Below are positions 3,901 to 58,792 of a stretch of 64,000 nucleotides of DNA, one piece after another. The translations under genes and the position numbers were made by a program. Within the stretch, counting starts at the first letter, position 1. Each line of letters opens with the position of its first letter. Below the pieces are notes generated by a model, which saw only the letters and a program-made list of their open reading frames with translations, ran no database searches and was not told the origin of the DNA. The DNA is from Botryllus schlosseri (Eukaryota): assembly GCA_051294905.1 (NCBI GenBank), contig CM119372.1, forward strand, positions 35,094,001 to 35,158,000, given 5' to 3'.

Positions 3901-6787
3901 GAATACTGCTGTCTTTCCGACGTGATTTGCTACTTAAAACTAGTTACTTGACCCTTTTCACAATATGCATTTTGTATTCCCGCCAATTAGAAATTGCTAT
4001 TGTTACTTGATATTCAGAATAAATTAGCGGCAATACCTTCAATTCTGATTAGGGGGCATTGCTGACCACTTTCAACACCTATGTTCTAAACCTAATCCCA
4101 GCTAAAATTCAAGCTAACAAAGAGCCCAACCCCTGCTCTTACCTATTATAATTATTCTTATCAATTGTAAAAGTGAGACAATGCGGAGATAATCCCTTTA
4201 TCGTCAGCTATAAACGATGACTCGCGTGTTGTCCTGCGACGTCCAATGAAATGTAACTATTTGTATTGATCTATGACAGTGTTTCCCGTACAGATAAAAA
4301 CAGCCACTGATCTATAGCAATAGATTATGAAACTGCGGATAGATGCCACACACGTTATTCCATGATTGGTCATCTGAATACGACCAGCAATTTTTGGTCG
4401 CTTTCTAAATAGGTGGTGAGGCAATCTTGAAGCTGGCGACTGGAAAGATTTTTTTTTTAAATCAGTCTCACACAAAAGCTACTATCGCTCTGAATCCGGA
4501 AATATAAATTACAAGGTGATTAGGGCACGGCAGACCCCGAATTCACTGTTAAACTCGGAAATTAGAATTGTTTCGAACAATCGAAACGCTAAACAGACAT
4601 TTTGACTTCACTGAGAGTCTTGTCGAAACGCCGCTCCGATTATGCGTCACATGACAATTCATGGACCTTGCGGACGATTCGCAAGGTGTTTCATTGTCCC
4701 GATTCGCATAAAATGTATATTTCCGAAATTACATTTTACCGTTTAAGAGCAATTCCATTGAATTTTTGACTCGGTCACTAGCTATAGTATTACCCGGCTC
4801 GGAACTGTCCCTCAGTGGACCGCAGATGTCATTAATACAGAGTGCAGCTTTTCTTAAGCAATGAGCATGTTGATCAATTTCGAGTCGAATATGTGCTTCA
4901 TGGAGGCTTCTGATATACCATACGGCAGGGACGGGCTACATACGGCCCGCGACGGCATTTTGAGCGCCCGGAGGGAGTTTCCACCCTGAAAGTAAAATTC
5001 TATTCTGAACGAATTGACATTTATTTTTCGCGTCGCAGAAAGAATCCAAGATTGCCAACCTGAAAAAAAGGTCATAAAACTATTTGTCTTGTTAGGGTTG
5101 ATATACATTTGCGAGGAAATATTTTCGATCATGGACAATACCAAGACAAGACTGCGTTCCAATACAACTGAAGTTCACGTGCAGTGCTAACAAATAGTTT
5201 TTACATACGACATGGATCCAGAAAACTTGCTGGAAATTTTGATCGACCACAGATGTCTGATTGACTTCAACATCTATTGAAGTACATTAGGGTAATAATT
5301 TCATTAAATACTGTTTTTGGTATCTATGAAGTTTACATTGAATACGATATACTCCTTGTATATGTGAATAAATATGTGCGATTCATGTAACAATTATGCA
5401 AACCCGGCGCGCCAAGTAGGCTACTTTATTTCCCCATGTTAGGGCCGCCGACCGGAGACGCTGCCCGCCAATGCCGTACGAGGTTGAGAGTCGTTTTAGG
5501 TTGCGAGTAGCAGACGTGATATAGATGAAGGCTTGATTCGGATTTGTAAGTTGGATGGGGTTTGGAAGTGTTTTCAGGAAGCAATACCGCACGAATGTAA
5601 CTTTGAGCGCTTAGATAAACGAATATTACCAGTTTCATGGGGATGATATGATTGTAGGGTTCTGGTTTAAATCAGGTTTTTCGTCGAATTTTGATTTTAT
5701 TTTTACCATTTTGATTTTATTAATTATTTTGTTTTTTTCAAATTTTCGGACGAGATGCGTGAATGTGGTTTATTATCGGACAATCATGAGATAGCATCTC
5801 GTCACCAGCACCGGTATAGTTCAGCTATTTGACAGACAAACGGGAAAAGAGCAAAGAGCGTTAGTCAATCAATATGTTAGCGTTCTGCTGTGGATACTAG
5901 TTAGTTGTCTGTGACATGTTGCTGCTATTTCCGAGGCACTGGTGGGATACCACAAACGCAGCGCAATCCGCAGTCTTTATCGAATTCGAAAGATTCCCTC
6001 ATCTCTGATCTAGTTTGCTGGCAGAAACCACTTCATCGATCAAGATGAAGATGCAACTATTGTGGATGGTCCCGATTTGACTCAACATGTTTCCTCGCTA
6101 CTAGAACAGATCAGTAATGATTCGGGCGACTCATCATTAACGCATAGGTTGAACGTTTTCAGCTATCTGGATGATGATTTACAGCCCCACATTGTATCAG
6201 TTTAAGCGTAATCCTTCATTGACATGGTAGTCATTCATCCCATTTTCTTTTGTTCGTGTTGTTGTTATTATGAGTAAAAAAACAAAAAAATCAAAAAAAT
6301 CATGATTTGAATTATTTAATTGATTAAAATCGATTTTAATCAAGGGCAAAATGATTTAAACCAGAACCCTATATGATAGCAGCTGACTACAGCAATATCG
6401 AGTTTACGAGATTTCAGAAGAAAAAAAAACACGTCAGGGCAAATGTTATGAAATCGGTAGCGTGTAGGCAATGACTTGTAGTTGACTTGACAAATCCGTG
6501 CATTGCTTATTTCTATTGATAGATCTTGATTTTCGAGTATCAAAGTGAAAATCCTAAACATGTTCATTTCTTAAAAAGGGTTGAGTAATAATTTCGTTTT
6601 CGTTAGGAGCACATAGAATGTCTCCGAAATCTCCACAGGAACACTGTATAGTGCGAATTATTCACGGAGTCAGCACTTCACGAGTTGCAAAATTAGGTCA
6701 GAGCACAATTATGATTGCAGATTTTTCTATTCGGTGATGTCCTGTATTGGCTGTTCATCGCGAATTATATTTGGTTTTACGCCGCAG

Positions 6788-6952
6788 ATGAATTACACTA
6801 CAGAGCCATCTTCTTTTATTCCTACTGATGCTGTCACTGATGTTGCACCGTCTTGGAAAAGACACGCCCTGATAACCTACTTGCTGTTCGTTTCAGTTCC
6901 AGGAATCGTTCTGAATGGAACAATCGTGTTCGCTCACATGAGGAAATACGAC
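6788..6952 (+). CDS. Opsin exon 1 (N-terminus with N-glycosylation site NYT, TM1)
   Basis: MNYTTEPSS...LITYLLFVSVPGIVLNGTIVFAHMRKYD; donor gtgggt at 6953, phase 0 fits exon 2. Confidence 0.8.
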
Positions 6953-9900
6953 GTGGGTATCATAATGTATTGTCGATTACTCGAGTTATCGTCAGTGCTC
7001 GGATTCGCCCGGTTCGAATCTACAGTACTCGATCACTAAATATTACGAGATGAGCAAACCGGTTCTATGCGATCAAACCGAAACACGAAAATATTGAATT
7101 CAACCTCTGGCAATAGTTAGCCTACTTGACGGTATAGTTTGTTTTGACATGTTTTGAAAAGGGAGGTGTTTTCGTTACCTCTTGAAATATGCATTTTCAC
7201 CCTTTTAAGGCGTCCAATATCCAGCGATATCCTTTGCATGGGACGTCAATGGAGTATGGACTAGAATCGGACGGAAGTAGGCCTATTGCAATGCATCAAT
7301 AAAATAACAGCAGCATACCAATAACAATTTGAAAAAATTGGTAACTCGATCTCAAGGGCGTTAGGAAGTAATATTCTTTCTTAACATGGTCATTCAGTCT
7401 ATAAGAGTAGATATTTTGTCTTAAGTTGAGGTAAAAATATGAGAATTAGAGAGTTACTCATTCGCAAACATTTCGCCAAGGTACAACAAAATGCGAAAGA
7501 AAATCAGATCAACTGGCCCTTCAGATTCCGGTAGATCTCGTGATTAGGCCTACATTGTTGTTTGTACATGAAATGCAAATCACATTTGGAGATATACTCA
7601 CACAATAGAAAATGAACATTGGACCGTTACCGAACAATGTTCGAATATTCATATTTATAACAAGGTTAAGCATAAGCCTCACTCACGTGACGACGTTTTT
7701 TTACAATATATTTTCAGCCAACCAGTCGGAACAAAAAACCTATGACGTTGCTTATCATCAATCTCTGCATTGCCAACTTACTCAGTGCCATGGTGAGCGT
7801 CATCATGATTGTGCCCATCAACACGGGAACTTTCGAGACGACTGATCTCACCTGTCAAATTTTCGTCCTTATTCAAGGCGTCCTAGGTAAGTTGGCCGAA
7901 TGCTGACTTTGTTTTCTGAATACCCAATAATTCCCAGGTCGATAAGCATTCAATATATGGAAAGATAACGTATTAAGCCAAAATCAATTTGAAGGCATTC
8001 ACTGTTACCAACATGCTTAAATACCGCTTGTATTTCTCTCTTACCAGAAAGAGCTCTGATTTCTACGCAGAGAGCAACGAAGTACTATACGTTTTCGAGA
8101 TAAAACGTTCCTACGTAGAATTGTCCATGTATGTATATTATATATTATGGAATATGACACTCATCGGCAATGGCGTTGTGCACCAAACCTGGCCGCTATG
8201 AGTCTATATTTTGGATTGATCCATTATAGCAGCCTGTTCGTTAGCAATACGTATTCACTTGCTGTTAGACCATATATAGGGATACTATGTCTAAGGGCCC
8301 ATTGGTCCGTTGTACTATATTCTGCAAATAGTACCGCAGTTAGTTTTGACTTGTTTGCTTCTAAACGGGAAGGTCAGTAACAAAGCCCTACATCGCCCAG
8401 ACATTGCTTCATTGATCATTTGCTACCATTGTTTGATTTTTTTTCTATTTTCCTTTCTTAACTAAACATTTTTTTACAGCCAGACTGTTCAGAGTCAAGT
8501 GTACCTGTTTGATGCTGGTGTGATCAGACTAGATGACCTTCACGGTCTCATCGATCATTCCTATCTAATACCGGATACTGTGCATGCATATTTTCTGTAC
8601 CACCATCACTGCCGGTTGTTATGTATTTTGGTTCGATGAAAATAAAGACTCTCTCTCTCTCTCAGTAACAAAGTGTACTGCCTACTTGAGTCGGTTTTTT
8701 ATTATGCTTGCCCTACTTAGGCTACATGGTTATATTGTTATAGTACTTCAACTTCTACTCGAACTTTTTCTAGGAATACTTACGTATTTATTTTACATTT
8801 CGAGTGTTACGAAGTAGATATCAGTTTTGGATGAGTTAGCATCCCCGAAATAGCTAAAACTTGTCATTATAGAACCGTTTGAAATTGACACAGTATCGCC
8901 GTAACTGACTGAATATCTTCTCTAACACTTTACCTAATTGGAACAAATAAAGTAATCAGTAATCTGAGGTAGTCACGAGAATACATGTTTAATTTTAAAC
9001 CAACATATGACTACCTATCGAAGTAGCCTTCAAACAGTTGATTGTCTGCTGACATGTGACGTAATTTTGAAATGTCTTGAAAATGGACACTGCTAGTTAC
9101 AAATCAGTTGTTTTCGACAACGTTGGTTTTATTTTAGTTTTCAGTTGGATTTCTTCTCTTGCTCTCATCGTGATAGGAAATTCCAATTCAACGTATTTGG
9201 ACAGGGCATGTTAAGAATAGAATAAAAGTCTGCTATTCTGCGAAACTTTTCACAATGTAGACCTAAGATTCTGAACTGAGGCTTTAAAAACCGCATACAC
9301 CCCAAATGTAGCTTCCTTGCATCTCTCACTCATGCAATTATCTCGAAGCGAAGATAAGCCAGTCTATTCTGATGAAATTTAGGATGAGAGCAATTTTTGA
9401 TAGAATGAACAGGCTGAAAATTAAAATAAAAAATCGTTAGGCCGATGGAAACCTCACGCAGCTACGGCTTACTGCATCCTCTGCAATTTTTATTCGTTTT
9501 ACAAGCTTTCTAGGGCTCAAAGCGAACGGACAGTGGAACAATAAATTGATTTGGATGATTTTTCATGTTACTGTTGCTATTTTGTTGGAGCACGCTTTCA
9601 TGTTTATTGAGTATTCTAATGTGGCTCCATACGGACTCGGAAGTTTTTTTGTTCACACAACATAAAAGTTTGCGAACCACTAATGTCGAACTTTTTAAGG
9701 TTAATTCGTGAAAAATATTGAGATGCCGAAAACGAAAGTGTACACGATTTCTACATGGCATGCCCTGATTGTTTAATATTCGAAATTATTCGAATGACTG
9801 AATCATTTTGTCCACGCATATCGTATATTCCAGGTGGGACTTGCTTATTCTCGATGGTTGCATTGTCTGTCGCACACTACATAATTATATGCAGGAATAT

Positions 9901-12900
9901 GCAGATTGAATTTTCACAAATGAGTGCTTTTGCAGGTATGCATTCACCGCATGGTAAATTCGTGGTTCTTATTCGGAGAAAATTTAGGATCCATAAAAGT
10001 GTATGCCTAATATATTTTGTGTCGGCTTCCCAGCATCCCAGCTTCATGCAGGTTTTGCAATATCTGAATCGCTATTGCCTTCCTCAAACTCCTCCTTAGT
10101 GGGGACAATCTGAAATAGAGCAGAATTCATTTCATAAAACAACAATAAGTAGGATATGTTTCAACAAGTTTTCTAACATATTTTTTTCGCACTTCGTATC
10201 ACTCCAGTTCTTCGAGCAAATATTGCAATCCATATATGTCCAGACAAAGGATATTACACTATAGGGTTTGTTTATTTGTGCATGGTATTCATGGTGTTTG
10301 TCGACTACTATGGTCATTTACACCAGGCCGATGTTATGCATTATTTTCCGTAACTGCCAACTTATAGCACGGCCCACCTTTAGGCTTTTTGTAAGACACC
10401 GCTGACGCTGATGTGGTGGCGTGGAGGAGCCGAGGTAAACCTCGGTCGGACTCGAACCCACACCTATTGGTGTTGCAGCCGCGAATTATACCACTGCGCT
10501 ATCTCGCCACATTATACTAGAGTTACCATACGTCCTCTTTTAAGAGGATTTGTCCTCTTTTGTGACTTTTTTTCAAGTGTCTCGGAAGACCAAATGTCCT
10601 CTTTTTGAAATTTTGTCCTGTTTTTCGAGAATTTTTGTCAAATTGACGGCAAAATTCGACTGAGATGCCGTAAATTAGCACCGAAGTAACGCCCCGGCGG
10701 GTAGTTCGGGCGCTGAGCCGGGAAGTCTACCTGTTTTTAATCTACCACAGGGGTCACCAACACGTGACCCGCGAGCTGATTTGAGATTTAAGAAGAAAAC
10801 TAAGAAAACCAATTTGAAATGCTGAAATTGACTACAGTTTCAACATGTTGCTGTTGTTGTTTCAAAATAAGCTATTCTCTTGTGCCCAATGTCACTATTC
10901 GTCACTACCAAATACGGCTGTTGTGATGGCAACAACATTCCATCGAGGGAGAATCAGCTGATATGAAAGGGCATACTGTCTTGACTTGCAATGGCCCAAA
11001 CACTGCCATGATCGAGACGCTTAGAAAACGGCTTAGGGCAGTGGTCCTAAAACTGGGGAGCGCGCGCCCCTCGTTGGGGCGCGAAAGCATCAGAAAGGGA
11101 GGCGGAGATGCGCTCAACTGAAAAAAAAGTTCTCCGGTTTTAGGAACCACTGCCCTAAGCCGTTTTCCAAGCATCTCGGTCTTGGCAGTGTTTGGGCCAA
11201 TGCAAGTCAAAACAGTATATGCCCATTCATATCAGCTGATTCTTCCTCGATCGAATGTTATTGCTCTGTGTATAGTCCGGAATTCATCTTAGGGAATTCT
11301 CTTATCAACAGTTTTAGGAACCACTGCCCTAAGCCGTTTTCCAAGCATCTCAGTCTTGGCAGTGTTTGGGCCAATGCAAGTCAAAACAGTATATGCCCAT
11401 TCATATCAGCTGATTCTCCCTCGATCGAATGTTATTGCTCTGTGTATAGTCCGGAATTCATCTTAGAGAATTCTCTTATCAACAGTCATAACCTTCCATG
11501 CCATCAAACTAGACGTTGGGATTGCTAGCATTCTGGTTGCATTCTGTGATTGATGGGATGACGATTTTTGAGTATCATAATTGGGGGCGTGTCTAAAAAA
11601 GTTTGAGAGCCACTGGCTTCGAGTTTCCCCACAAGATCAAGCTTTGCGTGAAGATGGTGTTTCGGCTAGCCATGTATCTCGATAGTCCCAATATCGATTT
11701 CTTAGTCGCTGAAAATCGTTTCCAGGTATCGTTCACAGCTCACAGTTCAAAATAAAATAAAATTGATGAAACTGATCTTTTGTTGTATTTGTAATCCTTT
11801 ATTAAAATATTGTTTCTTGTAAGGTCAATATGCCCATCGTCTATGTTAGGTAGCTCACCGTCGTACTGACGTAGAGTTTTAGAACGTTGCTGCATATTTT
11901 TCATCGATATCGAATTCATGCGGCCCGCGGCCTCTGCGAAATTTGAAAAGTGGCCCGCAACCCGTTGAGTTGGCGACCCCTGGTCTACCACCTGATAATG
12001 TGAAGGAAAAACAGTAATCCGGGCACTGAGCGAGAAATTTTTTTTTTTTAGTCAACCGAACACGAAGTAAAAACAATTTACCAATTTTTCATGATTTTTC
12101 TCCGGTTTTGCAAGTCTCAAAATTCTGAAAAAGTATCCTATTTTCAAATTTCCAAAATATGGTAACCCTATATTATACGAGGAAAAAGATGAAAAATTTG
12201 CATAGTTATCAGGATTAAGTTCAATCTGTCTAGAAATTGTGATAGATCGGTATATGGCAATATAGTGCAGTGTTAAACCGTTTAAATCTGTTGAGCTGCT
12301 TTAGTGTAGGAGAGTGAGGCTTTCAGGTGTGGAATTATTGGGCAACGAAAATATTTCGGCGACCGATTACGCGCCGGTGCACACCACGGCCTGAGAGGAT
12401 TCGGTTAACATGTCACCACGCAGAGACCGGTGTCCAAAATCCGGCGCCTATAAAACCAAATAAGGCCGACGCATGTTGAACGAAACATTCACTTGCGGTC
12501 TCTTAAAACTACTTAGCGGTCACCCAAACCAAACTGGAGCTCTTTAATCACTTCCTACATGGATTCATGTTTAATTCTCCGAGCTGACTCCTACCGCCCA
12601 TCAACTTATTGATGATCACTCGTTATGGTTGGTACGTATACACGAGTTGTGAGGTGACCTCAGAATTGGTCCAACGGGCGAATTACCTCCTATTTATTGA
12701 AAAAAAGAGGACAAATCCTCCTAAAAGAGGACGTACGGTAACCCTCAATAAAGCCTCTCATGAGTTGTGTTGATCACAATTAAGAGGCAACACTGCCGTT
12801 TTATTACGGGGATGGGATGATAAAGTGTTACGTTTGCGTTACTCAATCATGTAGATAGCCTTTTGCTATGGCCTTCACAGGCAAAACTAGTGCCATGAAT

Positions 12901-15900
12901 AAGAGTAATCGTGACAAGATTATTTCCAGCTATCATTTCTACCTGGATTTGGGCTGGGGTGTGGAACACTGTGTTGGTGATCAGCGACGGATACGGCCCC
13001 GATAGATTGTATTCGTATTGCGGCATCGTATGGAATTCACCTGACAAATATTTCGTTCAATACTGCCTCTACTTGACCTGCTGCTTTGCAGCGCCGTTAA
13101 CTGTGTTGGTCTTCTGCTACAGTGCGATCCTACTACATGTTCGAAACGTAAGTTATATTTAGCAGATTTTATGCTTTTAGTCTCCATGTATGACTGTACA
13201 GAAATAATGATGTTCATGATCCGCTGCCTCACACGTGGAAGAAAACGGATAGAACTCTTTATCAAAACGAATATATATTATCTCCAAAAAAGCTGAGGAA
13301 TGAGTTTGTTTTTGGCATTTGATATTTGAAATTAGGAGGTACAATCGACGCACCGCGTTGCTCCTTTTCTTTGTGTTATCAATTAAAGCATACCCGTTGA
13401 ACCCATTCGTGAGGTAATTCTTCTGATTTGAGAATCCTGATGGTGACGGCATATCCTGAACTCTAAATAGCAACATCTGAATCAACTGCATTTCATTTAG
13501 AAAATTTGAATTGGATTAATAGCGGTTATCTTCTAGCATCTCGACTGTTGTGATTCAGTTTTTTTAGACGAATTTGCTGCTATTCAGTTTCAAACAATAG
13601 TGAAAGCAGTTACATGCGTTGATATTCATATTTTACCTTCGCGCGGGTCATGTTGCAGTGTCGTAGCCCAGACATTGAGACTTTCATTCCATTCATTTAA
13701 TATTTTCAGCAGGCGAAGAGACCTTCCGACTCGGAAACACCGTCAGCACTGTTACGGACGATGAAATCAGTTTTTGCGATCATGCTGGCATTTGTTATTT
13801 GCTGGTTTCCGTATGCTGTCATCGCGATATTAAAGATAATGACACGACGCGACAATGTGCGACTCATTGGTTACTTCTGACAAATAGCATACAAATAAAA
13901 ATCGAAATATTTAGAATTCATACCCGGACATGTTCGCTTTTCTGGCGGCCAAAACCTCGTACCTTTCATGCCCGATGATCTACGTCATGCAGAATCGCAA
14001 TGTAAGTCTGGCACCATTACACTAGCAACTTTGAGACGAACCCCGATTGCTACGGATTGGAATGAGGAGTTTATATACGTCGTGTAGCCAACGTATCCAA
14101 TTTATTTATTAGTTTATGTTCGTATGTAATCCGTCACTAAACAAAATATTTGAAATAAAATTTCAATAATAGACTACCTAAAGCGGTAATGGTTAAAATC
14201 GTTGTTTTGCGCCGTGGTTCTCAACTTGTTTCACTTCGCGGACCGTAAAAATTTCAAAAAATATCCAGCGGACAGTAGGACCATCAAAATTTGAAATGAA
14301 CACAAAATTTCAAGTATTAAACCGTTTTTTTGCTAGTATGGTACTAGAGAGTGACGTTTTAAGAGTTTTGTTCGTAATTAAATATGTTCACGATGGTATA
14401 AAAGTGATTTTACGGTAGTTAGTCTGCTAAGTCGAAGTAAAATTTATTGGCCAAGATAAACATGCTAGCGCCGAGAGTAAATAATAGTCTTTCGCGCCGA
14501 ATGCCGAAGGCACTGGGCCATCTCGGATAATATTCTTTTCTTCAATAATATCTATGAAAGAAGCGTTTCGGAGTCAGACCAAGCATCTTGTCGTGCTACC
14601 TTGCTCATTTTCCACTACAACATCACGTACTGTGAATCCAATACGCGTCAAGAATACACATTACAACAGTGACACGGGTTCATCCACAAAATGAATGTAT
14701 CGGAAACGAACGATCGAAGATCGTGCAAACTGCGTGGTTAAGCGAGTCAGCTCGTACTTGTCGCTGGCATGTAGTTAGCGATTTAAACTTCAAATTAAAT
14801 CCAGCGGGCAAATATTTTTGTAGGCGTGCAAACTGAGAAGATAAATTAGGTTTGCGGGCCGGGCAAAAAAAGGTTCAATCTATATTCCGCGGCGTACTCT
14901 ATTCTAAATATTGAAAAAAACAGTGAATTGCATTGTTAACACAATCTGCTAGCAAAGTGGATGTGGTAGATTTGGGATATGAGAAAGTCGGGGTTAAATA
15001 ACAAAATATTGTACTGATTCATTCAGTGACAATATTCTAAACAATGCGAAACACGAAGCAATCCTAACTCACTTAAATCATTTTTACCCATACCCATTTT
15101 TCTATGGTGGCGTCAATATTTATTTGGGATATCACGAAGCTGGTCTTGGTCTCAAGCTGTGTGTAGCGTGGCATTTAGCTTCGTTGTTTTGAGAGTTTCG
15201 CTGGTAAATGACCTGAACTCCACGCTCTCTTGGCCTCGGTCAGCCGACGGGTGTTAGTATTTCACTGCGTTTTCTCATATTGCCCATTCAAAATATATCT
15301 CCAAACATGGCGAACCGCTCACCACAAAGAAAATGTCGTGTTTCCCTCTCACACAAGTGAAAAAATATTTAGTGCTCGCAATTTTTAAATCTCTGCCTCG
15401 AGCCTCTTATTTTTTACCATGGCTGTTCGTCGTATTTGGGTGACCGGTGCTCACGGCCACTGATAGACTTGTTTGACGCATTATGGATTGCAAACGCATG
15501 ACATGACAATTTAAATCACAGATCGGGTAATTCGCAAAGTAACATTGGCAACATACCATTTTAAACTATCTGGAAACAGTTACTTTTAAGTTTAATTGTT
15601 ACGGTACACTTTGCTATATTTACAGTATTTTGAATCCAGATTATGCGACCTATGCGTAGCCTGTGTACTCAATGAAAAATTCGTTGAGCACCGTTTTTCA
15701 GACAACCTAACAATGCCATGGGGTAGCCAGTAATTTTTTTTCCAAATTATAATTTTATTTGTTAAATAAATCCAAAACTCTTTCTCTTATAGCAATGCCA
15801 CTATCCGTTGGAATCGCACTAAAATTGTAGTACAGCGTTTTTTTGTAACCTAACAATTTTACGAAGTAGCCTAGCCAGTACAATTTGAGAAACAAAAATC

Positions 15901-16627
15901 ATTTTGGAACACCCCTAGTGTACACAGATGAAGAAAAAGGCCTAAAAGTAAACGAATTCTGGTTCAGTTTATGCAGTCTTTGGCTTTATTTCACACTTAG
16001 GATACAAAAGTTGGTTTTCTGTTCAAAGTTCCAGGTAAATGTTCATGGAAAAGTCAGAGTCGAGTAGCATGCTGCATTTTGCTCGCTTGTCGCACTTTGC
16101 CAAGGTTTGGGTTAAATCGAACATGATTTGCAGGCCTAATGTTACCACGCGAAGTTTCGAATATCTTTAAATTTGATCTTTTATTTCACCAATTGACAAG
16201 CCTTCAACATTTTGCATCTTGAAATAAAAATATAAAATTCTAAAATACCTGACGGACCGGCACCGGTCCGCCGTCCTCCGGCGGTTGAAAACCACAGGTT
16301 TCTAGTACTTGAGTCGAGGTAAAAGTAATGTTGTCAATTTTGAGTTATTCACGAGTAAAAATGGATATTCATGAGCCATGCCAAATTCCGAACGAAAAGT
16401 ATTCGATGAAATGGGGCCTAAGGGGGGAAATAGTGGACGTTTACCACAGAAAGTGCTTGGGATTAAACCCGATGATAAAATTATCGTACACAATCCTAAG
16501 TATTCTCACTTCCTTTCAGATGAGGAAAGAAGTACTGGCAGTATTAAACCGATTCACAGTTTGCTTCAGACCAAAGCAGGACAAGAAGGCCGAAGCTATT
16601 ACGGTCATGGAAAACACCGCCATTTGA
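6788..16627 (+). CDS. Opsin (class A GPCR, ciliary-opsin-type gene structure, divergent), 7 coding exons, 331 aa: join(6788..6952,7718..7886,9834..9935,12930..13147,13710..13856,13915..14001,16520..16627)
   Basis: All six introns are GT-AG and phase-compatible (0,1,1,0,0,0); the joined CDS is 996 nt with no internal stop. Seven hydrophobic segments, TM1 GIVLNG, TM2 NLCIANL, C110/C187 pair (TCQIF; YSYCGIVW), TM6 CWFPY, and TM7 AAKTS with Lys at the rhodopsin-296 position. Confidence 0.9.
7718..7886 (+). CDS. Opsin exon 2 (TM2, start of TM3)
   Basis: ttttcag acceptor; PTSRNKKPMTLLIINLCIANLLSAMV...TCQIFVLIQGVLG; gtaagt donor. Confidence 0.9.
8542..8663 (+). mobile_element. Short retroposon-like 3' end with AATAAA + (CT)n tail; second copy at 19806-20567 is split by a MITE
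   Basis: acggtct-atcgatcattcctatctaatacc...gcatattttctgtaccaccatcactgccg...gatgaaaataa-gac(tc)n is present at both loci. Confidence 0.75.
9834..9935 (+). CDS. Opsin exon 3 (end of TM3, ICL2)
   Basis: ttccag acceptor; GTCLFSMVALSVAHYIIICRNMQIEFSQMSAFA; gtatgc donor. Confidence 0.88.
10308..10510 (-). mobile_element. tRNA-derived SINE (Pol III A/B-box head plus body)
   Basis: Minus strand reads TAGCGCAGTGG (A box) ... GGTTCGAGTCC (B box). Related heads at ~53945-54022 (-) and ~43120-43190 (+). The body motif (ggccgtgctacaagt-ggca; cctggtgtaaatgac) recurs at ~709-800, ~25700-25790, ~43920-44010 and ~49300-49345. Confidence 0.7.
10748..11982. mobile_element. Nested hAT-type MITE (CAGGGGTC...GACCCCTG)
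   Basis: TIRs caggggtcaccaac / gttggcgacccctg; 8-bp TSD atctacca/gtctacca. Confidence 0.8.
11039..11615. mobile_element. Third-level nested hAT-type MITE (CAGTGG...CCACTG) with internal rearrangement
   Basis: Ends cagtggtcctaaaact / agtttgagagccactg; TSD gcttaggg/gcttcgag (6/8). Confidence 0.6.
12930..13147 (+). CDS. Opsin exon 4 (TM4, ECL2, TM5)
   Basis: tttccag acceptor; IISTWIWAGVW...GYGPDRLYSYCGIVW...CFAAPLTVLVFCYSAILLHVRN; gtaagt donor. Confidence 0.9.
13710..13856 (+). CDS. Opsin exon 5 (ICL3, TM6)
   Basis: ttttcag(cag) NAGNAG acceptor; QAKRPS...AIMLAFVICWFPYAVIAILKIMTRRDN; gtgcga donor, followed by a 58-bp intron. Confidence 0.85.
13915..14001 (+). CDS. Opsin exon 6 (TM7 with retinal-binding Lys)
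   Basis: atttag acceptor; NSYPDMFAFLAAKTSYLSCPMIYVMQNRN; gtaagt donor. Confidence 0.9.
14212..16297. mobile_element. Old non-autonomous hAT-like element in last opsin intron
   Basis: Ends ccgtggttctcaac / gttgaaaaccacag with ggaccg subterminal motifs at both ends; TSD poorly conserved. Confidence 0.5.
16520..16627 (+). CDS. Opsin exon 7 (helix 8, C-terminal tail, stop)
   Basis: tcctttcag acceptor; MRKEVLAVLNRFTVCFRPKQDKKAEAITVMENTAI*. Confidence 0.8.
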   Translation: MRKEVLAVLNRFTVCFRPKQDKKAEAITVMENTAI

Positions 16628-18055: not shown

Positions 18056-19345
18056 TTGTTGTTGTTGTTTATTAAAAGCAAAATTTGACGCTTATCACCT
18101 GTTGGTCTTTTGCACCACGGTCGATAATGGCGTAGGAAATATAAACAGCCAATGATGGCGTACGTATTGGATAGACATAATATTTAAAATATAGCATTTC
18201 AGTGAAACCACAGAATATCAAGGCCAGAAAAATGGAAATTTCAGAGCAGTGGAAATGAAACATTCACGGCCATTCACAAATTACGGTTGCAGGATAACAC
18301 AAATTCAATTGTGAAAGGGATGATTTGATCTTCGGTGAGGAGAATTGCATGGCGGAAATAAACAATAAATTCAGCACATTTAGCAATGGGGAAAGTACGC
18401 TGTAAAGAGAGGTCAACGTGTGACTGGGGCAGAAACCAAGGTGGAATAGATGGAAGTGGTCCAATATCATGCCGTCAAACAACGACGAGTTTGTGAGCGT
18501 ATTAAACGTTCGAATGTTAGGTCTCGTTAGACTGTAGATCTCATGCCAGCTGCCTTGAATGATATGTTGGAATAATCCATTTCCAGGCTCTTGATTCAAA
18601 ATATGACATCGACATTTCATCGAGATAGAAGGTGTTGGAGATGAAAAGGCATCTCGTGACGACATTCGGCCTGGAGCACGCATATCAAGGTACTGGTCAT
18701 TGCATTGGTACAGATCCGAAGGGCTTTATTCTCGATGGATTTGAGCTTCTTGAGATGCGTGACAGGCACAAAGAAGTATGCAGGCAAACCATGGGCCATA
18801 TGCAAAGTGAACGGTAAACGCGCAAAAGGGTTCCCTTGTTGGCTCACCAACTCGTGCAACTCAATACTCGCAGTACTTTTAGCCTCTTACGACACTTGGA
18901 CGAGATATATTCAATGTCAGGTTTGTATGAGAGTCTTCTGTCACAAACAACGCCAAGGTACTTGAATGTTTCCACCAACGGGATTCCCGAACCGTCAGGA
19001 TGCTGTGAGATAGGGGGAATTTTGTGCTCACGGGTAAAGTACCTTGCTACATTTTTTTCCGTGGATAATATCAGGCCCCACTGATTACACCAATGCTGTA
19101 AGTAAGACGTAAAACTTTGTACCGTGTGGACACGATTGGATGTGGACAAATCGCTGTCCAAGATCAGAAGATCATCAGCGAATAGTGCGTGGGAGCAATC
19201 GGCCATTGGTGGAAGTTCAGACATGATTACCGCATGGAGAAGCGGACTTATGACACTGTCTTGGGGGAGACCATTTTCCAGATAGTGTGTGTTAGAAAGG
19301 ATATTCCCGTCCTGGAAAGAACGCGTTGACTAAAAGTTGTTGATC
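18056..19345 (-). mobile_element. 5'-truncated, decayed LINE fragment (RT C-terminal part), related to the 21713-40767 LINE
   Basis: Minus-strand ENGLPQDSVISPLL, LFADD, FKYLGV-CDRRL, ALRICTNAM-ST, WHEIYSLT (shared with the large LINE); ends in AATAAA+(CAA)n at 18056-18073; frameshifted. Confidence 0.85.
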
Positions 19346-21488: not shown

Positions 21489-21835
21489 CTGCTCACGTAA
21501 CGTCACTGCTGTTTCAATCCAATGTGCCCTATCTTTCCAGTTGAACGAGCAGTAGCTATAGATATAAATAGGTATTGATAACTTTCAAAACCGGAGGAAA
21601 ATCCGGAAAAATGGTAAATTTTTCCCACTTCGTGGTCGCTTGACTAAAAAAGAAAAAGATCCTCAACTCCCGGAAAATACAGTTCTTCTTTTACATTAAC
21701 AGGTGGTTGACTTTTTTTTCGCTCAGAGACGTCGTAGCGTGCGGACGCATCGCCGTTTCAGTTCCTTTAAGCTTATCAGATTGGCTAATCAAGACAAGTG
21801 TCCGACTAGCAATTTACGCTTTGGCGTAGCCAGCT

Positions 21836-23077
21836 ATGGATATGGAGACAAGTTCCTCCGCAAAGAGGAAGTCTTCAACCAACTTCAATTCTTCTGAGGA
21901 AGAATGCGGGGATGGGGAGTGGTGCTATGTAAGAGGCAAAATACCTGCCAAGATATTTGCACTGATGGATAATGCAGTTGGGAAGGAACGGGAATCTAAT
22001 AGCCAAAAAGCAACGAGTCAACAACTTGACGTGCTGCTATCGGGGTCTGATGGAACACGCATGGGACACCAACATCCTACAAAGGTATGTGAGGCACTTA
22101 AGATAAACATTGGCAATTTTGAAAAAATACGCAGACTGCCTTCTGGATATCTAGTTGTAACTTGTAAAGCCAAAGAACAGGCTGATAAACTTCTCACCAT
22201 AGATCAAATAGGAAAGGACTACAACCTGATCGAAGTCAAAACCTCATTATTTGGTGTCAAACCTTACGGAGCAAGAGCAGTACTATCCGGTGTTCCGCTG
22301 GATATCACAGAAAAAGAGATCTTGAAAGAGTTCTTTGAAATTGGCGTCAATTTCGTTAAACGGCTAAAGCGCAAAGTAGATGGAAAATATGAGAGCAGCC
22401 TCTCGATTTTGTTATGTTTCACATCTGAGACATTCCCTGACTACGTGCATTTTTCATACCTACGGTTCCGTACCAAACCTTATAACCCGCCACCGGTCAG
22501 GTGTTTTGGATGCAATAGATATGGCCACACAAAAGAGAACTGTCGTGGGAAACAATGCTGTTCAAAATGTGGGGGTCGTGATCACGAGGTTGATAAGTGT
22601 ACCAAAGATTTATGTTGCATTAATTCTAAACAACCGCACAGTGCTGCTTATGGCGGGTGCCCGGTGTACAAAGAACAGGCGAAATTACAAATCATAAAAG
22701 AACGTTCCAAGGTCACTCACTCCGAAGCTAAATCAATACTCAATTCCGAAACATCCAAAACACAAGCTACGCGTCTTTACAGTGAAGCGGCGCAGGATAG
22801 CGCAACGAGTGTCATCAATCAGCAACGATTAACAATCAACAACCCAAGTCATCGAGTCACCATCAGGAAGACTCCGCTACAAACAGCCTATCATCACATA
22901 AACAAACACATTGAAAGCAACGACCCAAACAATCATCCTGATTTGGAACCAAATAATCAATTTTCCTCAGCGTATATTGATCCGATCCATCTTATCGCAC
23001 TACTGGCTGAAATGGTGAAGCTTACATTGGCGGCCTGCAAATCAGACACGGAGTGCGATGTAGCCTACACAATATAG
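21836..23077 (+). CDS. LINE ORF1p, gag-like nucleic-acid-binding protein with CCHC zinc knuckles
   Basis: 413-aa ORF with RCFGCNRYGHTKENC, CSKCGGRDHEVDKC and a degenerate third knuckle CINSKQPH...GGC. The stop probably comes from a 2-bp TA duplication near 23074; without it the frame ends at 23202, overlapping the ORF2 ATG. Confidence 0.9.
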   Translation: MDMETSSSAKRKSSTNFNSSEEECGDGEWCYVRGKIPAKIFALMDNAVGKERESNSQKATSQQLDVLLSGSDGTRMGHQHPTKVCEALKINIGNFEKIRRLPSGYLVVTCKAKEQADKLLTIDQIGKDYNLIEVKTSLFGVKPYGARAVLSGVPLDITEKEILKEFFEIGVNFVKRLKRKVDGKYESSLSILLCFTSETFPDYVHFSYLRFRTKPYNPPPVRCFGCNRYGHTKENCRGKQCCSKCGGRDHEVDKCTKDLCCINSKQPHSAAYGGCPVYKEQAKLQIIKERSKVTHSEAKSILNSETSKTQATRLYSEAAQDSATSVINQQRLTINNPSHRVTIRKTPLQTAYHHINKHIESNDPNNHPDLEPNNQFSSAYIDPIHLIALLAEMVKLTLAACKSDTECDVAYTI

Positions 23078-23194
23078 TATCCAAAGTTTCTTTGAAATAT
23101 CTCGGTCGACAGGCAGATTTTGTCACGATGAGAAACATTTTCGAACCCTTCCATGATATCAATGACACCAATCCGATGACAAATCCCACAAACG

Positions 23195-23674
23195 ATGGAT
23201 AATATAGGACTAAACTTTTTACTGTGGAATTGTAGAGGATTATATAGGAAGCATCACGAACTAAAACACCTTCTCACGACTCTGGAACGGGCTCCAGATG
23301 CGATAATTCTCCAGGAAACACACCTTATCGAAAAATAGGCCTACTCTCCGAAATTTCCAGGATATCACTGTCACAGAAAGGACAAATCCCCTCATTCCGG
23401 TGGATTGGCGATCTTTGTTAAATCTTCACATAACTCCAGCATCGAAGCAGATGCTACAACCGACATCGAAGTACTTTGTGTGAAGCTTCATGGCCTATCA
23501 TTGTACAATGTGTACATCCCACCCGACTGCCGCTTACGCGACAGTGATGCGAGCATTTTCGAGACGTTACCGCCAAAATCCATTGTCTCTGGCGACTTCA
23601 ATGCACATCATTGGTCGTGGAGTTACAAAACGAACCAACGAGGGACTAAACTTTTTAATGTCATCGATCACGCA
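23195..23674 (+). pseudogene. LINE ORF2, 5' part (APE endonuclease)
   Basis: LLWNCRG, LQET, GGLAIFV, NVYIPP, GDFNAHH motifs; in-frame TAG at 23336; broken at ...VIDHA by the palindromic insertion. Confidence 0.92.
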
Positions 23675-24851
23675 AGTAGTAGTAGAGAAATGGTGGATAT
23701 AGGCGCATATCGTCTTTTAACTTAAAGAAACCAACTTCTCTAATATAATAAAGAAACAAAGGATAACCGACTTACGCATTTTGCAGAATTGCAGTGGGTA
23801 GTTCCCCCCGTGACGGATTGCTGCAGAGATTTGATCAATAATTTCTGTGGCTGAAGGTGTGATGTCGCTACGGCTAGTGATTTTCGGTTCAAATGAGGGT
23901 GATATATGTGTATTTTTGGTATCATTTTCAAGGCTGCTTGCAAAATTACGTCACTCACTATCGGGCGATGAGTGGATTCCTAAATTAGAAGTGGTCCTGC
24001 CTGGCGATTTAAAACTCGGCTGACCTATCACGTCGATCAATGATTTCCGGTTCAATTGAATACGGGTGCCATCTGCGTATAATGAAAAGTCGTTCGTGTT
24101 GAATAAAGTTTTATTATTAAACGAGTTTTCTCAAGGTTATTGTAATCTTTGCTGTAATTTTCCGTGTATGGCGATCGAATCTTTCTGGATCTCTACGGTG
24201 TGTAACCCGACGACACGGAAAAGTTCGCCTGGCGTGACTCGGCGTGTAATGGCGGGTTTGATTGACTGATGATGACAACTTATGCTATGTTTCAAGCGTA
24301 TGGTCAAGGTCACACGAATCGATGTAAAGTCCCGCTTGGTTGAATTGTCGTTCTTCGATGGGGGTGGGGGACAGTTGGTTGTTTTTAAAGGCTACATTCA
24401 AAACTACTACCGTAACCCGCTGTCAGTCAGGCGCAGAGACGCGCGGACGTATAGATTTGGTATTATGAAACCATCCTGCTCCTGTTTATATTTTAAAACT
24501 CAACTGGCGTATGATTTCTCTTGGATCTCTCGATCGATGATATCCGGTTCAATCGAGTGTGACTGCAAGCTATCTGTGTGGTGCATGTGTTATCAAATCA
24601 AACTCGTTTGTGTCATTGAGTCCATGGTATATCACATTGATATGATTTTAAGCATACAGTTTTGAATAATCATATGGCGTTCGATTGCTGCTACTTGCTA
24701 GCCGCCATGTTCAAGCGGTTGTTGACGTCGTCCAAAGCTACTTGCTGCATCTCAGGACAGTAGATGGCGTATGTGCCAGCAGCGAGCCTCGTATACGGTA
24801 CAAACGAACGTCAATTAGCATGGAAAAGCAACGCATTGGAGGATCTTTACC

Positions 24852-25458
24852 GGATTATTTTTGGATTTACGTTTATCCGGACCCGGATTTGTGGATTTTA
24901 CATGCTACTCGCCAAATAATTTCGCTGGCAAATGATGTCCATTGTCCATGAATCAGCCGTGGTCGATCAAGCGTGATGCGATGATGTCAGTCGGAGTTCA
25001 AAATACTCGTTTGTATCAATTACATCAAAGTAGTCATTTTTCTTCTGACTCGTGACTCTTGCAACGATCTGGTTCCTGTATCGAGAACTACGATACTCGA
25101 TTCCATTGTACGCCGACGAATCGGGGCTCGTATACTATACATATACGCGTGAATTCGGATTGGAGTACAGCGTATTGGATGATTTTTACTGGATTACATT
25201 TGGATTTACGCTTATCCGGACCCAGATGTTTTAAATTTTACATGCTACTGGTGGATTAATTGCGCTAGCAAGTGATGGCCATAAATCAGCCGTGATCGAT
25301 CTAGCGTGATACGATGATGTCAGTCGGGGTTTAAAATACTTGTTTGGATTAATTATATCAACGTAGTCATTTTCTTCTGACTCGTGACTCTTCCGTCGAT
25401 GTGGTTCCTGTATTGAGAACTATACGATACTCGATTCCATTGTACGCTGACGTATCGG
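24852..25458. repeat. Diverged tandem duplication (~270-bp block, ~340-bp period) inside the arm; mirrored at 35630-36236
   Basis: tggatttacg-ttatccggaccc...cgatactcgattccattgtacgc-gacg-atcgg at 24852-25124 and 25191-25458. Confidence 0.85.
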
Positions 25459-26541
25459 AAAAGTTCGCCTCGTTTCGTAGGATACTGGTGGAATGGCTTA
25501 ATTTCGCTGAATATGAGTTTGGGAATATTTGGCGTTATATTCGAGTGATAAAAAAAAAACTTATCTCTAGGCAAATAGACGTACTTGCTGATTGATTATA
25601 GCCTGCGACCCAAATTCCCATTGTCTCTGTCCACAATCGCTTGTGAAGTGGTGCAATGAATCGGTGATCCGGCTCCTATTTTTCATATAATCCGTGTAAG
25701 CGACGCCTTCTAGAAGCTCAGAAGTGGGCAGTTTTACAAGTCGGTAGCTAAGGGACACAAATGACGAAAATCATCCTGGTGTAAATGACCGTATTAGTAG
25801 TCTACAAGCCCCATGAATATCACAAACAACGAATCAAACTCTACCCGCCATGCTATCAACTGCAGTGGGACGTATTTTCAATATATTGAGATATGTAAAT
25901 TTCATTCCTAATATTTTCAATCTTGCAAGCGAACCATCTTTTAAGGCGGCAATAATACAAGATTTGTCGTTATCGGCTAACGCTCTCAAGGGCGATTTGG
26001 TGTATGGAAATGTGAATATTGATTACGACGGTGCGATCTTGGACGGTTCGCCGCGGTAAACAATCCTTCATATCAGGAAACAATCATGCGCAGTCTGAAA
26101 ATATAGTCGAACATTCGTACCATGCTACAACACCAAGCACAAAGCGTTATTGGAAACAATTGCGATGAAGCAGCGATCGACATGCATTGTACAAAGACAT
26201 AACAATAGTCACGCACACATACACACTAGAATACTAGTCAGATTATCGGACCACGACCTAACATATCGATCTGGCTTTCCGCCCCATGCCACCTCATTTT
26301 GTCGCTTTCCTTTCATATTCTTTGCTTTAGTTTTCATTCGGTGTGCATTCCTCTTTTCTACTTTACCTATGCCAAGGTGGGTGTCTGATTTCAATGACTA
26401 CTCCAAGCTCCAACTCGTTTCGACACCTTATGTCTTTCATTGTATCGCAGTTTTGTATAGTGTTTTGAAACGATGAAAATATTAATAAACTGACAATGAT
26501 ACACTAAATTCTCCCAAGAACAGCTACAATACAGTAACGGT

Positions 26542-27690
26542 CAGAGGTGGTCAGTAACGAAGTACTTCTACTTTTGGAAGTACTCAAGTAGTTCTGCTCT
26601 ACTTCTGGTACTTACTCAAGTAGATATGATTTTCTCTACTTCTATTTTGACTTCGTAATATTTTGTGATCTACTTACTTACTTTTCGCTATTTTCAGTTT
26701 ATCAAGTAGAAGTAGTTTTATCCCCCAATACGAAAGCTAGCCTGAGGAGTTTCGGGGCTGTTTTCACGGAGCAACAAGATTTAATATTTATAAAAGTCAA
26801 GTAAAGCCCAGAAATTTTGTTGCGCTTCGCGCATAGTAGTGATGAAGTGACAAATATGTTTTGATGAAAGTATCAGTGAATATAATTTAGACACCGGATT
26901 GTTTGGTTCCTATCACACCGCATTGTCGCCCATATCAAATATTTCATCACAGTAAATATGGCCCACCATAACGTTTAAAACTACCGATTCGCAATCTAGC
27001 AATTACCTATGTTAATCTGGAAAATCCAGCTTTTTTGAACGTTACACCTGATTTAGCAGATCACCTTTGAAGTTTTATGGACAAAAGACATGCAATATAT
27101 TTTCCGATTTTAAGAAGTGGTATTTGTATTTCAATGCAAGTATCATACTTTAAGTTCGAATTACTTTTAGTTCTTTTGTCTGCAGAAGATACATGTTGAA
27201 GCATATAAGCAAGTGTAGTAATGCCTCTATTTTCCGAAAATAAAGCTACACTAAATATAACTTTAACGATCCACAATATTTGTTATTACCGTATACTAAT
27301 CACGTAAAAGTGATGAAACCGTATCCGATACAACTTCCACGTGTTGCTGTTCGCCTAAACTTGGGGCCTTATAATATAAGGCAGGGCGCCATGCCATGAT
27401 ATTCTCTAAAAACGGGGTCTTCTAGTAAACAAAGTGTTAGTGTCGCCTTTTCATATCAATACTATAAATTGCATGCCCATGATGCGAAACAATGCTTATT
27501 CTGTCGGGAATTGATACCACCCATGATGCATTAATACGAATCAAGCTCTCTGCCCCTGCCGCATAGCTCGATTCGCAGATTTTGACAGTCCATGCGAACA
27601 GATTAAGACTGTTTTCAAAACTACTTACTTACTTGAGTAGATGTAAAATCAGTCAATTCTACTTCCACTTCAAGTAGTTTTAGGGGATCA
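26542..27690. mobile_element. Host-type non-autonomous DNA element inside the arm (mirrored at 33398-34546)
   Basis: Starts cagaggtggtcagtaacgaagtac; clustered tactt/aagtag subterminal repeats at 26560-26715 and 27620-27680; right terminus not found. Confidence 0.55.
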
Positions 27691-28706
27691 TTTTCGTTGA
27701 GCATTAAAATACGGTCTCTTGCAGAGCGTGACGGTCAAAAAAAAATGTGTGTCTCAAATATTCAGCGGAAGCCGCCGTGCATTATTATACGAGACTCTTA
27801 TATATGGCTTGGAATACAGCACCGATGCCTTGCAATTCAGAGGCTGGTGTATCGAGAGCGTCCATGGCAGTTGATCGAATAACCATATGAGAAGATGGTC
27901 AAATCTGATTGTTTACCTCTCTATTATAAATATTCTATTTCGGAGTGTTTCCTTGTATATTCCCGAAAGCGACGACATAGAGCCGATTATTACTGATCTC
28001 CCGATGTGAGAATGAAACTCGTGAAAAGAAGCTTGTGATCTATAATGGATTACAGAATATTCCGATGTCAACGCTGACGTTCGTGAAAATGGTGCGATTC
28101 GTTATAGTTCTGATCTTGTGTGACTACCCCAAACAGTAGATTCTCGACTATAAAACGTTTGTGTAGCTATAATTCGTATCCAAGTTGTTGAACTAAGACA
28201 TATGACGGTAGAATCGAATGCCATACATAAAAACTTATTCAAATACCCATACTAAGAGTGAGCATTACAACGTTGAGTCACTTGAAAAGTTGTCGTGGTA
28301 GCAGAATATTGTTTATGAATCGATATGGCCAGTAACAGTTGCATTGTTCGCACATTTAATGCTATTTATCGATATCGGATCTCCTTATGAAATATCAGTG
28401 TGATAACCAAGTGCGTGCCAACTGCTCTTTGTCGATGGAAATAAACACCTGTCTCCCATATTGCTGTCTGAAAACAATCTGTTTTCATGCAATACGCATA
28501 TTTGCAAGGCAAGTCCTGCTAATTATGTTGTCCGTTCGTTTTTGTATTGACATTAAGTGTCTTGTATCGCTCCTTTGGCGATGGTAATTTGCTGGAAAAA
28601 GTCAGCACCTAAGATTAAAAATTACCCAGAGAACGAGCTCTGTCTTCGTGACCTTTCAATATTCACCTATGGTTTTGAATTCAGAGCAAATGACATTATT
28701 GTTGCC

Positions 28707-30192
28707 AATATGTGAATTGCTATCGAAGATTCGTAGTAATGGTTTTGTGTGTTTTTAGGATGATATATTTCTCAAATAGTTTCCCAAAATGAGAGACTGT
28801 TATGGAAAAACACCTCGATCCGGATCCGCCAGTACAAGGATGTGTAAATATCGCGTCGGGCTCTCACCGCTCCGAATTATATAGACTCGCAACGTTCGCC
28901 AGGTTTTCGAGATTATCATACCCAAAACGTGCAGATTTAGCATCTGACGGATATTACTGGCTAGGGTTCGAAGACAAAATTAAATGTTTCGGATGCAGTA
29001 TTTCACTCGAAAAATGGGTTGAAAAGGATTCGAATGTAAGTTGTCATGAAGCGAGTTGTGTTCGACACGTATTCAATATTCCCGTTGAAAGATCGAACTT
29101 CAGGAGTCTATTACGGGAGTTTAAGCTCCAAATCGAGACACCGCAAGTCAATAACAGCGACATAAAACTTGCGAATATCATTGACCGAGAACACGCGTGT
29201 TTGATTAAGAACCTCGACTTGAAAAGGGAATCGAAGCGACGCGAAACCTTCAAGAAATGGCCCAGCTATCCAATACCCCACGCAGTAGGCGAGTTGGCGA
29301 AACAAGGGTTTTCCTATCTCGGTAACTTAGACAGAACGCAGTGCTTTAGCTGCTTCGGTGTTCTTCGCAACTGGAAACCCATAGACGACGTATCGGAAAT
29401 ACACCTTACACATTTTCCAAAATGTACTTTCGCGCGTGGTAGCTTTTCAGGAAATATCGCACTAGCTGAGCACGACCGCGGGAATTTGGACGACTTGCTT
29501 CACGAGAAAATACGACGGCTCACTATCAATGTGAAAGAACCAGATGAGCCCTCCGAGGATGAAAAACACTATCTTGCTGAACTATTCCCTTGCCTAAACC
29601 CCGCGAATCCTGTATAGTCGTCCTTGTCACGAAGAATAGCAACCTTCGACGAAGGTTGGGATCCCGCTAAAATCAATGCTAGCGTTGAGCAACTAGCAAA
29701 TGCGGGGTTTTATTACATCGATTCGGACAAGACAAAATCTTTTTACTGCAATGGTGGACTTCGGTGGGACCGGACAGACGAGGTTTGGACGGAACATGCT
29801 AAATGGTTTCCGCAATGCGAGTACGTACTTCGTATGAAAGGTGTCGAATTCGGGCGACGCATCGAAAACACATATCCAAATCTCAATCTTCCGATTATTA
29901 TAAACCCCATCACGAAGTTGGAGTTGACTAAACGCCAAAATGTTCTGCGGAATCGTCAATCAAACGATGGATCACCGTTGAATTGCATCGAAAATGGGAG
30001 AGGCCGTGACGTGTAAACGATGTGAAATAAACATAAATGAATATGACTATAGCATGTGGACATCTTTGCATTGTTTCTAGACTTGTGGGACTGACGTAGA
30101 ACGCAGTGGTGGCAGTCATGAAGTACTTCTATTTTTTCTCAGAATTGTGGTAGGTTTTAATATGTGAATTGCTATCGAAGATTCGTAGTAAT
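28707..30192 (+). repeat. 34-bp perfect direct repeats bracketing the IAP gene (28707-28740 and 30159-30192)
   Basis: aatatgtgaattgctatcgaagattcgtagtaat at both positions; mirrored in the right arm. Confidence 0.95.
28802..30110 (+). pseudogene. Intronless inhibitor-of-apoptosis (IAP/BIRC) gene: BIR1-BIR2 ORF (271 aa), in-frame stop, BIR3, frameshifted RING remnant
   Basis: BIR motifs RLATF..LASDGYY..KCFGC..H...C; RRETF..LAKQGF..QCFSC..H..HFPKC; RIATF..LANAGFYY..SFYC..EHAKWFPQC. ORFs 28802-29617 and 29624-30016 share a frame and are separated by one TAG. TCKRC (30009-30023) and ACGHLC (30052-30069) lie in shifted frames. Confidence 0.92.
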
Positions 30193-30687
30193 AGTTCTGT
30201 AGAATTTTGGTTCAACCTAGAAAAAGTTCTTATGCAGACGTATTATATACCGTTGGAAAGATAATTTTATCAGCTTTTCAATGATGGGTTTTGTCATTTT
30301 TTTACCTTGGGGAAAAAAGTTATGACCAAAAACGTGCCAGGGGATGAAGCACGATTTTGCCTAACATTATAATACAATTATAAGCTAAAATACGATGGAA
30401 ACGATACCTTAATAACAGAATACAACATTATAAATTGGAACATTACTATCAGCAAAGCAAACTAACAATCGGACAGCAAAAAAAAATGAAACATAACTTT
30501 ATTAAGAAGTATTTATCATACGTTTAAGGGGTAAAAGTTGACCGATACGGAGATAATAGGCGAGATTTCATCGAAACAAAGGGTTTTTCTTCTATAAGCA
30601 AGGTCATGGTTAAACCAAGTATAAAGATGTAAAAACGATATCTACAGGTTTTACCTAATTACACTACATACTCAAGTGCCTTGTGTT

Positions 30688-58755: not shown

Positions 58756-58792
58756 AGTAGTATAGTCGCTCGCTCGCATGACGCAATGGGGC

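Follow-up and report, generated by a model that had tools for sequence, protein, structure and literature searches.

A strongly diverged ciliary opsin gene of Botryllus schlosseri that has unusually lost its G-protein switch, with a predicted role in retinal handling

Opsins with derived motifs are widely regarded as photoisomerases (PMC9368030), and in Ciona, for which a review gives three opsin genes (PMC8450388), Opsin3 is a photoisomerase candidate (bioRxiv 2025.07.01.661410; PMC2781864). Both phylogeny and intron positions set RGR and retinochrome apart as a subclade of their own (PMC7910522). All groups of ciliary opsins (c-opsins) share three introns of conserved position and phase, and such patterns are opsin-group-specific (PMC5648526). 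Vertebrate-type opsins have been reported solely from vertebrates and tunicates (PMC11893379). The arginine at bovine rhodopsin position 135 is central in G-protein recognition; it contacts the G protein and forms salt bridges with E134 and E247 (PMC6147235). In C5aR2, a naturally occurring class A receptor, the position is taken by Leu, and this receptor shows no G-protein coupling (bioRxiv 2025.11.01.685996). Here, we describe an opsin gene of Botryllus schlosseri in which this arginine is replaced by histidine. The gene occupies positions 6788-16627 of the forward strand in a stretch of 64,000 nucleotides (nt), hereafter the window (assembly GCA_051294905.1, contig CM119372.1, positions 35,094,001 to 35,158,000). 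Judged by its sequence, it is a genuine ciliary opsin whose G-protein switch has, unusually, been lost, and its function is a predicted one. Literature searches that reached few subscription journals listed, by title or opening of the abstract, no description of tunicate c-opsins lacking the E/DRY arginine.

Gene structure and ciliary-opsin origin

The opsin gene consists of seven exons, and its 996 coding nt specify 331 amino acids followed by TGA, with no internal stops. All six introns are bounded by GT..AG, and one of them is 58 nt long (the window has ~39% G+C). An earlier note on this DNA had called the open reading frame and splice sites intact, which they are. The open frame, the splicing, the introns at c-opsin sites, and the retention of K296 together with the C110/C187 pair are shown by the sequence data. 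The exons are given below, with X6 denoting one of several public sequencing runs and TM, ECL, and ICL denoting transmembrane segments, extracellular loops, and intracellular loops.

6788-6952, +, exon 1: contains the start codon, an N-terminal N-glycosylation sequon (residue 2), and TM1, which includes N55; joint 6952-7718 present in X6
7718-7886, +, exon 2: TM2 (N83), C110, F113; ends inside codon 121, phase 1, which is c-opsin intron site 1
9834-9935, +, exon 3: end of TM3 and ICL2; A134-H135-Y136 replacing E-R-Y; both adjoining joints present in X6
12930-13147, +, exon 4: TM4, ECL2 (D181, R182, Y186, C187, G188), TM5 (P215, Y223); ends after codon 232, phase 0, which is c-opsin intron site 2
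13710-13856, +, exon 5: ICL3 and TM6; L247 replacing E247; C264-W265-F-P267-Y268 retained
13915-14001, +, exon 6: TM7 with K296, CPMIY, and NRN; ends after codon 312, phase 0, which is c-opsin intron site 3
16520-16627, +, exon 7: helix 8 (M313, R314); short C-tail with three Thr and no Ser; stop codon; joint 14001-16520 present in X6

Contigs of run X6 contain all six opsin joints, and those of run X1 contain at least two of the six. The two joints that link exons 4 to 6 are found in X6, X2, and X4 and neither of them in X3; over this stretch, coverage in X2, X3, and X4 is confined to exons. In X6, depth is ~110-340 over exons versus ~3-24 in intron 4. These spliced or exon-only contigs (the set X1-X4 and X6) come from four studies, and none of these runs is recorded as RNA; from the exon-only coverage and the X6 depth contrast between exons and intron 4, we infer that the spliced contigs are transcripts. 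Two bulk RNA runs (X9 and X13, of which ~6% and ~13% of reads were sampled) yielded almost no exon reads and are uninformative about tissue or expression level.

Several further features of the transcription unit should be noted. Exon 5 has a tandem acceptor at 13703-13712 with two AG dinucleotides 3 bases apart, and 13710 is used in all four runs with this joint. A pyrimidine-rich stretch at 6770-6788 ends in AG immediately 5' of the start codon, and one X1 contig starts exactly at 6788, which weakly suggests that an upstream exon or a trans-spliced leader exists; an additional in-frame ATG lies 17 codons 5' of the opsin start. Introns 2 and 3 carry high-copy repeats at 8390-8680, 10280-12320, and ~12700-12760, where contig depths add up to thousands; among them is a local duplication of ~170 nt near 11140-11480.

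We derived the c-opsin intron sites from fish parapinopsin records that read through introns. The read-through breaks fall at G121 (P0104 and P0116), after residue 232 (P0104, P0116, and P0122), and after Q312 (P0095, P0097, and P0120), with the phase at codon 121 in parapinopsin taken from the Gly that flanks the insert on both sides. In the Botryllus gene, intron 2 lies in codon 121 at phase 1, intron 4 follows residue 232, and intron 6 follows residue 312, which matches all three c-opsin sites. The chance that six random introns would include the three sites is P = 1.2e-7 for exact positions and 540 in 2,000,000 with 6-nt slack. The single full-length profile hit among 863 candidates was a parapinopsin, and the nearest named relative is the fish parapinopsin P0005 (XP_046241271.1), with 85 of 317 aligned residues identical (~27%). 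When exon 4 was compared with PDB, the best 8 of 22 matches were cone opsins with rhodopsins next (best E 8e-4); none of the 22 was an opsin of squid or spider. These PDB searches gave weak scores and returned no RGR or retinochrome for comparison; exon 5 alone best matched generic class A receptors, and exon 2 alone had no PDB match. 

Because three introns occupy c-opsin sites and the nearest sequences are of this class, we regard the gene as a derived c-opsin, not one of the RGR/retinochrome/Ci-opsin3 type; that it is a strongly diverged ciliary opsin is nearly certain. As far as the three c-opsin sites go, the intron set argues against membership in the latter group. The earlier note had pointed to that group for comparison, which is not supported. 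Any photoisomerase role would therefore be convergent with RGR and retinochrome. Either a vertebrate-type placement or one closer to encephalopsin/TMT is possible; the best exon 4 match among representatives, P0001, is unnamed and is one that we take to be TMT-like. The motifs of chromopsins (NAxxY, VPxxY, or YPxxY; PMC9368030) were not found in the opsin, which has CPxxY instead.

Residues of the G-protein switch and the retinal pocket

Bovine numbering was anchored on 1f88_A through the PDB alignment of P0005 and a multiple alignment with 120 parapinopsin-type sequences, these being the ones listed of 552 hits. A profile from the 120 fish hits scored the opsin protein at 98 bits, compared with a maximum of 3.5 across 200 shuffles, and placed A-H-Y opposite E-R-M and the Lys opposite its Lys counterpart, with posterior classes of 9 or *. 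A numbering slip at A-H-Y is rejected by this alignment, and a search of introns 2-3 for an alternative exon encoding E/DRY gave just two chance matches, each beside stops. The key residues are encoded as follows.

7862-7864, +, F113
9872-9880, +, A134-H135-Y136
13001-13003, +, D181
13019-13021, +, C187
13951-13953, +, K296
13969-13983, +, C302-P-M-I-Y306
13993-14001, +, N310-R-N312

The assignments made in the earlier note for K296, C110/C187, A134-H135-Y136, CPMIY, NRN, F113, D181, and N83 are all correct in this numbering, to which we add the changes E247L, S186Y, G182R, and F313M, as well as the absence of Pro at 291 by ungapped count. Retained residues include N55, Y178, G188, P215, Y223, W265, P267, Y268, S298, P303, Y306, N310, and R314, along with a basic residue at 252. 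The protein combines a class A seven-transmembrane (7TM) type, by Pfam, profile, and hydropathy, with Lys at bovine 296, as expected of an animal opsin; 7tm_1 was the top Pfam hit for three of the seven exons, at scores below the curated cut-off. The canonical set of a G-protein-activating c-opsin (the E/DRY Arg, E247, NPxxY, and NKQ) is not present, and A-H-Y, L247, CPMIY, and NRN are found in its place. Among the 120 parapinopsin-type hits, D83 and E181 are each present in 120, E134 and R135 in 118 (with two gaps), and N302 in 113. Parapinopsins carry M136, and neither Y136 nor D83N is remarkable taken alone. Exon 6, with K296, CPMIY, and NRN, has no differences from an X4 contig, and among 40 of 42 difference rows neither D181 nor Y186 is changed in X3, X4, or X6.

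E134, R135, and its ionic-lock partner E247 are all lost together, and it is this joint loss that constitutes strong sequence evidence for lost coupling. The NPxxY change adds little to it: the earlier note had treated an altered NPxxY as typical of photoisomerase-type opsins, but such a change is weak evidence alone given that an NAxxY rhodopsin retains 141% activity (PMC9368030).

F113 is unable to serve as a counterion and therefore D181 is left, at a site considered the ancestral counterion position (PMC2781864). In spider Rh1, E181D still functions as a counterion, while S186F abolishes dark-state protonation and creates an ultraviolet (UV) pigment that remains bistable and still activates Gq (PMC6513861). 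By extrapolation from this r-opsin, Y186 predicts an unprotonated, UV-absorbing dark state, with D181 mainly relevant in the photoproduct. A UV pigment would accordingly be more likely than a dark-state Asp181 counterion. The earlier note had proposed an Asp181 counterion without having considered Y186, which weakens the idea for the dark state (PMC6513861); a role in the photoproduct may still apply.

Predicted retinal handling and alternative explanations

Taken together, the opsin likely handles retinal or light without the usual signalling. Its most specific form, which we favor only tentatively and at somewhat less than even odds, is a bistable pigment that binds retinal, has little G-protein output, and would buffer or re-isomerise retinal. 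The protein would fold as a 7TM receptor and form a Schiff base at K296. F113 and the bulky Y186 beside D181 would leave the dark Schiff base unprotonated and the pigment UV-absorbing and bistable, with D181 acting as counterion in the photoproduct only. Loss of E134, R135, and E247, together with the changes at N302, K311-Q312, and F313, would cripple G-protein engagement. The least supported step is the use to the animal, which might be retinal storage and isomer cycling beside ordinary opsins, convergent with RGR and retinochrome; an isomerase function is suggested because the pocket is kept while the switch is lost and by analogy with RGR and Ciona Opsin3. The earlier proposal of a retinal-binding, non-signalling opsin thus keeps its core, as an intact gene with K296 and degenerate G-protein motifs makes a loss of signalling plausible, but loses its comparison with the photoisomerase group.

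Variation in the public contigs is consistent with maintenance of the gene. Among 40 of 42 difference rows, exons 4-6 show ten coding variants, six of them synonymous, versus 22-25% expected (P 0.011-0.020); X2 has an additional synonymous change in the codon that opens exon 6, which was recorded as a joint and left uncounted. All four listed indels are intronic and none is exonic. Allelic difference is high, amounting to 11 of 165 exon 1 bases in one X1 contig.

A number of observations weigh against retinal handling without signalling, or against parts of it. We found no sequence feature that positively marks isomerase activity, and G188 is as in bovine rhodopsin. The existing candidate in Ciona, Opsin3, lessens the need for another photoisomerase, and the standing of RGR and retinochrome as established non-signalling isomerases is itself disputed (PMC9368030). 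On the cytoplasmic face, the activation residues Y223, W265, P267, P303, Y306, N310, and R314 are retained, and NPxxY changes need not abolish signalling (PMC9368030). The DLC motif of C5aR2 is one of several causes of its uncoupling, and CXCR7 is uncoupled despite an intact DRY, such that motifs predict coupling imperfectly (bioRxiv 2025.11.01.685996). Near-invariant parapinopsin columns are retained at 44 of 131 positions and other columns at 38 of 182; with 44 of 131 retained, retinal binding is not assured. Amino-acid changes occur at five sites, including Y184H in ECL2, and when two N-terminal variants (taken from the 40 listed of 504 difference rows) are added, the synonymous count becomes a borderline 6 of 12 (P 0.03-0.055). 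Lastly, A-H-Y is known from the genome assembly alone, and its GCA and CAC codons are each one base off Glu and Arg codons.

The same codon distances would suit a decaying duplicate, or an assembly error or rare allele at A-H-Y, as would the near absence of exon reads in the two bulk RNA runs. We give this account hardly any credence: the frame is open although the nearest named relative is only ~27% identical, four studies provide contigs that are spliced or confined to exons, synonymous changes are in excess with no exonic indels, and the exon 6 motifs are matched in an independent contig. A far more serious possibility, if still a doubtful one, is a low-gain signalling photoreceptor, probably UV/violet and of Gi/o type, with a rewired cytoplasmic face on which His135 partly replaces Arg. 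The activation residues listed above and the basic residue at 252 fit such a receptor, and bitter-taste receptors signal without DRY. NPxxY variants are able to signal (PMC9368030), and spider Rh1 S186F still activates Gq (PMC6513861). Opposed to this are the joint loss of E134, R135, and E247, with E134 and R135 found in 118 of the 120 parapinopsin-type hits, the replacement of NKQF by NRNM, and the structural contact of R135 with the G protein (PMC6147235; bioRxiv 2025.11.01.685996).

The opsin could also be an arrestin-coupled or decoy receptor like C5aR2, in which light or retinal would lead to arrestin binding and internalisation, or to modulation of a canonical opsin, with no G-protein output. 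We consider this improbable, as its C-tail has just three Thr and no Ser, and we know of no natural arrestin-only opsin. It would account for a Ser/Thr cluster in ICL3, and it has precedents in rhodopsin R135W, which is hyperphosphorylated and binds arrestin tightly (PMC6147235), and in the vasopressin receptor R137H, the same Arg-to-His change, termed constitutively internalised in the title of a reference; Ciona possesses an arrestin (PMC8450388). Even less probable is a retinal-independent or chemosensory receptor that keeps K296 for structure or for another ligand. The remodelled pocket (F113, R182, Y186, and the missing P291 by ungapped count) and an identity to parapinopsin of just 85 of 317 are compatible with it, but K296, C110/C187, Y178, D181, G188, W265, and Y268 are all retained, and the opsin clades called possibly light-independent have lost K296 (PMC9368030).

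The gene is of wider interest. The chromopsins are the one branch from which opsins that handle retinal without signalling are known, and the claim is contested even for them (PMC9368030). A maintained and expressed c-opsin without R135, probably in the vertebrate sister group, amounts to a natural experiment on the need for this Arg and informs how a photoreceptor becomes a chromophore-handling protein. Its combination of Y186 with D181 also lets the 181/186 counterion network be probed in a naturally occurring protein. The gene also bears upon the regeneration of 11-cis retinal in tunicates, described as functionally unproven (PMC2781864). We regard as speculative and rather unlikely the broader idea that a tunicate c-opsin family gave up G-protein signalling and became UV-absorbing retinal isomerases or arrestin-only photoreceptors; if true, it would represent either a second independent RGR-like origin within vertebrate-type visual opsins or the first natural G-protein-independent opsin.

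The surrounding window and comparison with known systems

The other long frames in the window are retroelement and IAP sequences. A second opsin was not found in the window by tblastn with either the opsin protein or P0005. Broken retroelement frames lie at 18264-19329, 21830-23725, 37372-40667, and 57910-58794, and contain the following.

18844-19329, -, reverse transcriptase in a broken retroelement frame
21830-23077, putative gag-like frame, a label of interpretation with no Pfam hit
37372-39056, +, reverse transcriptase in a broken retroelement frame
57910-58794, -, integrase core in a broken retroelement frame

An inverted repeat (23678-30313 / 30775-37410) has arms of 6636 nt that are 100% complementary and separated by a 461-nt spacer; it may be an artefact of assembly, or it may stem from a fold-back duplication that took place very recently. 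Each arm holds a BIR/IAP-like gene interrupted by an in-frame stop (28793-29617 and 29618-30016, +; Pfam BIR). At 59561-60048, two 244-nt copies that are 98% identical are arranged head-to-tail.

Searches for closer relatives, made with exon-sized queries and therefore insensitive, yielded no close ortholog. Exon 4 gave four hits of 27-38% identity among 1.84 billion representatives, one of which (P0004) was an unrelated repeat protein and was dropped; when exon 4 was compared with longer proteins, none of six candidates held up, and none of 339 and 279 pattern matches in metagenome contigs was confirmed. Atlas searches returned no subfamily name for the opsin. Three unnamed Logan records (P0002, P0003, and P0006) are opsin fragments of about exon size that share 34-35% identity with exon 4, stop at its intron site after 232, and retain E181, and the similarity of P0003 begins near extra intron 3 of the Botryllus gene. 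They are possibly other tunicate c-opsins.

Among the named systems, fish parapinopsin shares K296, C110/C187, an acidic residue at 181, CWxP, P303/Y306, and the same three intron sites, and neither gene has an ECL2 intron. Relative to it, the Botryllus opsin has E113 changed to F, E134-R135 to A-H, S186 to Y, E247 to L, N302 to C, NKQF to NRNM, and D83 to N, as well as three extra introns after its own residues 55, 145, and 267. Going by the literature, Ciona Opsin1 and Opsin2 would likewise be among the closest systems. The RGR/retinochrome/Ci-opsin3 group resembles it in K296 with a derived NPxxY and in a proposed non-signalling handling of retinal, but differs as a separate subclade with NAxxY, VPxxY, or YPxxY rather than CPxxY, and chromopsins bind all-trans retinal; RGR, moreover, retains the Arg of E/DRY. 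C5aR2 is a functional analogy only: it has likewise lost the TM3 arginine naturally and has an altered NPxxY, but it is an unrelated peptide receptor with Leu and Phe7.53, compared to His and a retained Tyr7.53 in the opsin. Spider Rh1 S186F (PMC6513861) similarly combines the lack of an acid at 113 with an acid at 181 and an aromatic residue at 186, although it is an engineered r-opsin with intact signalling motifs, carrying Phe instead of Tyr at 186 and Glu instead of Asp at 181.

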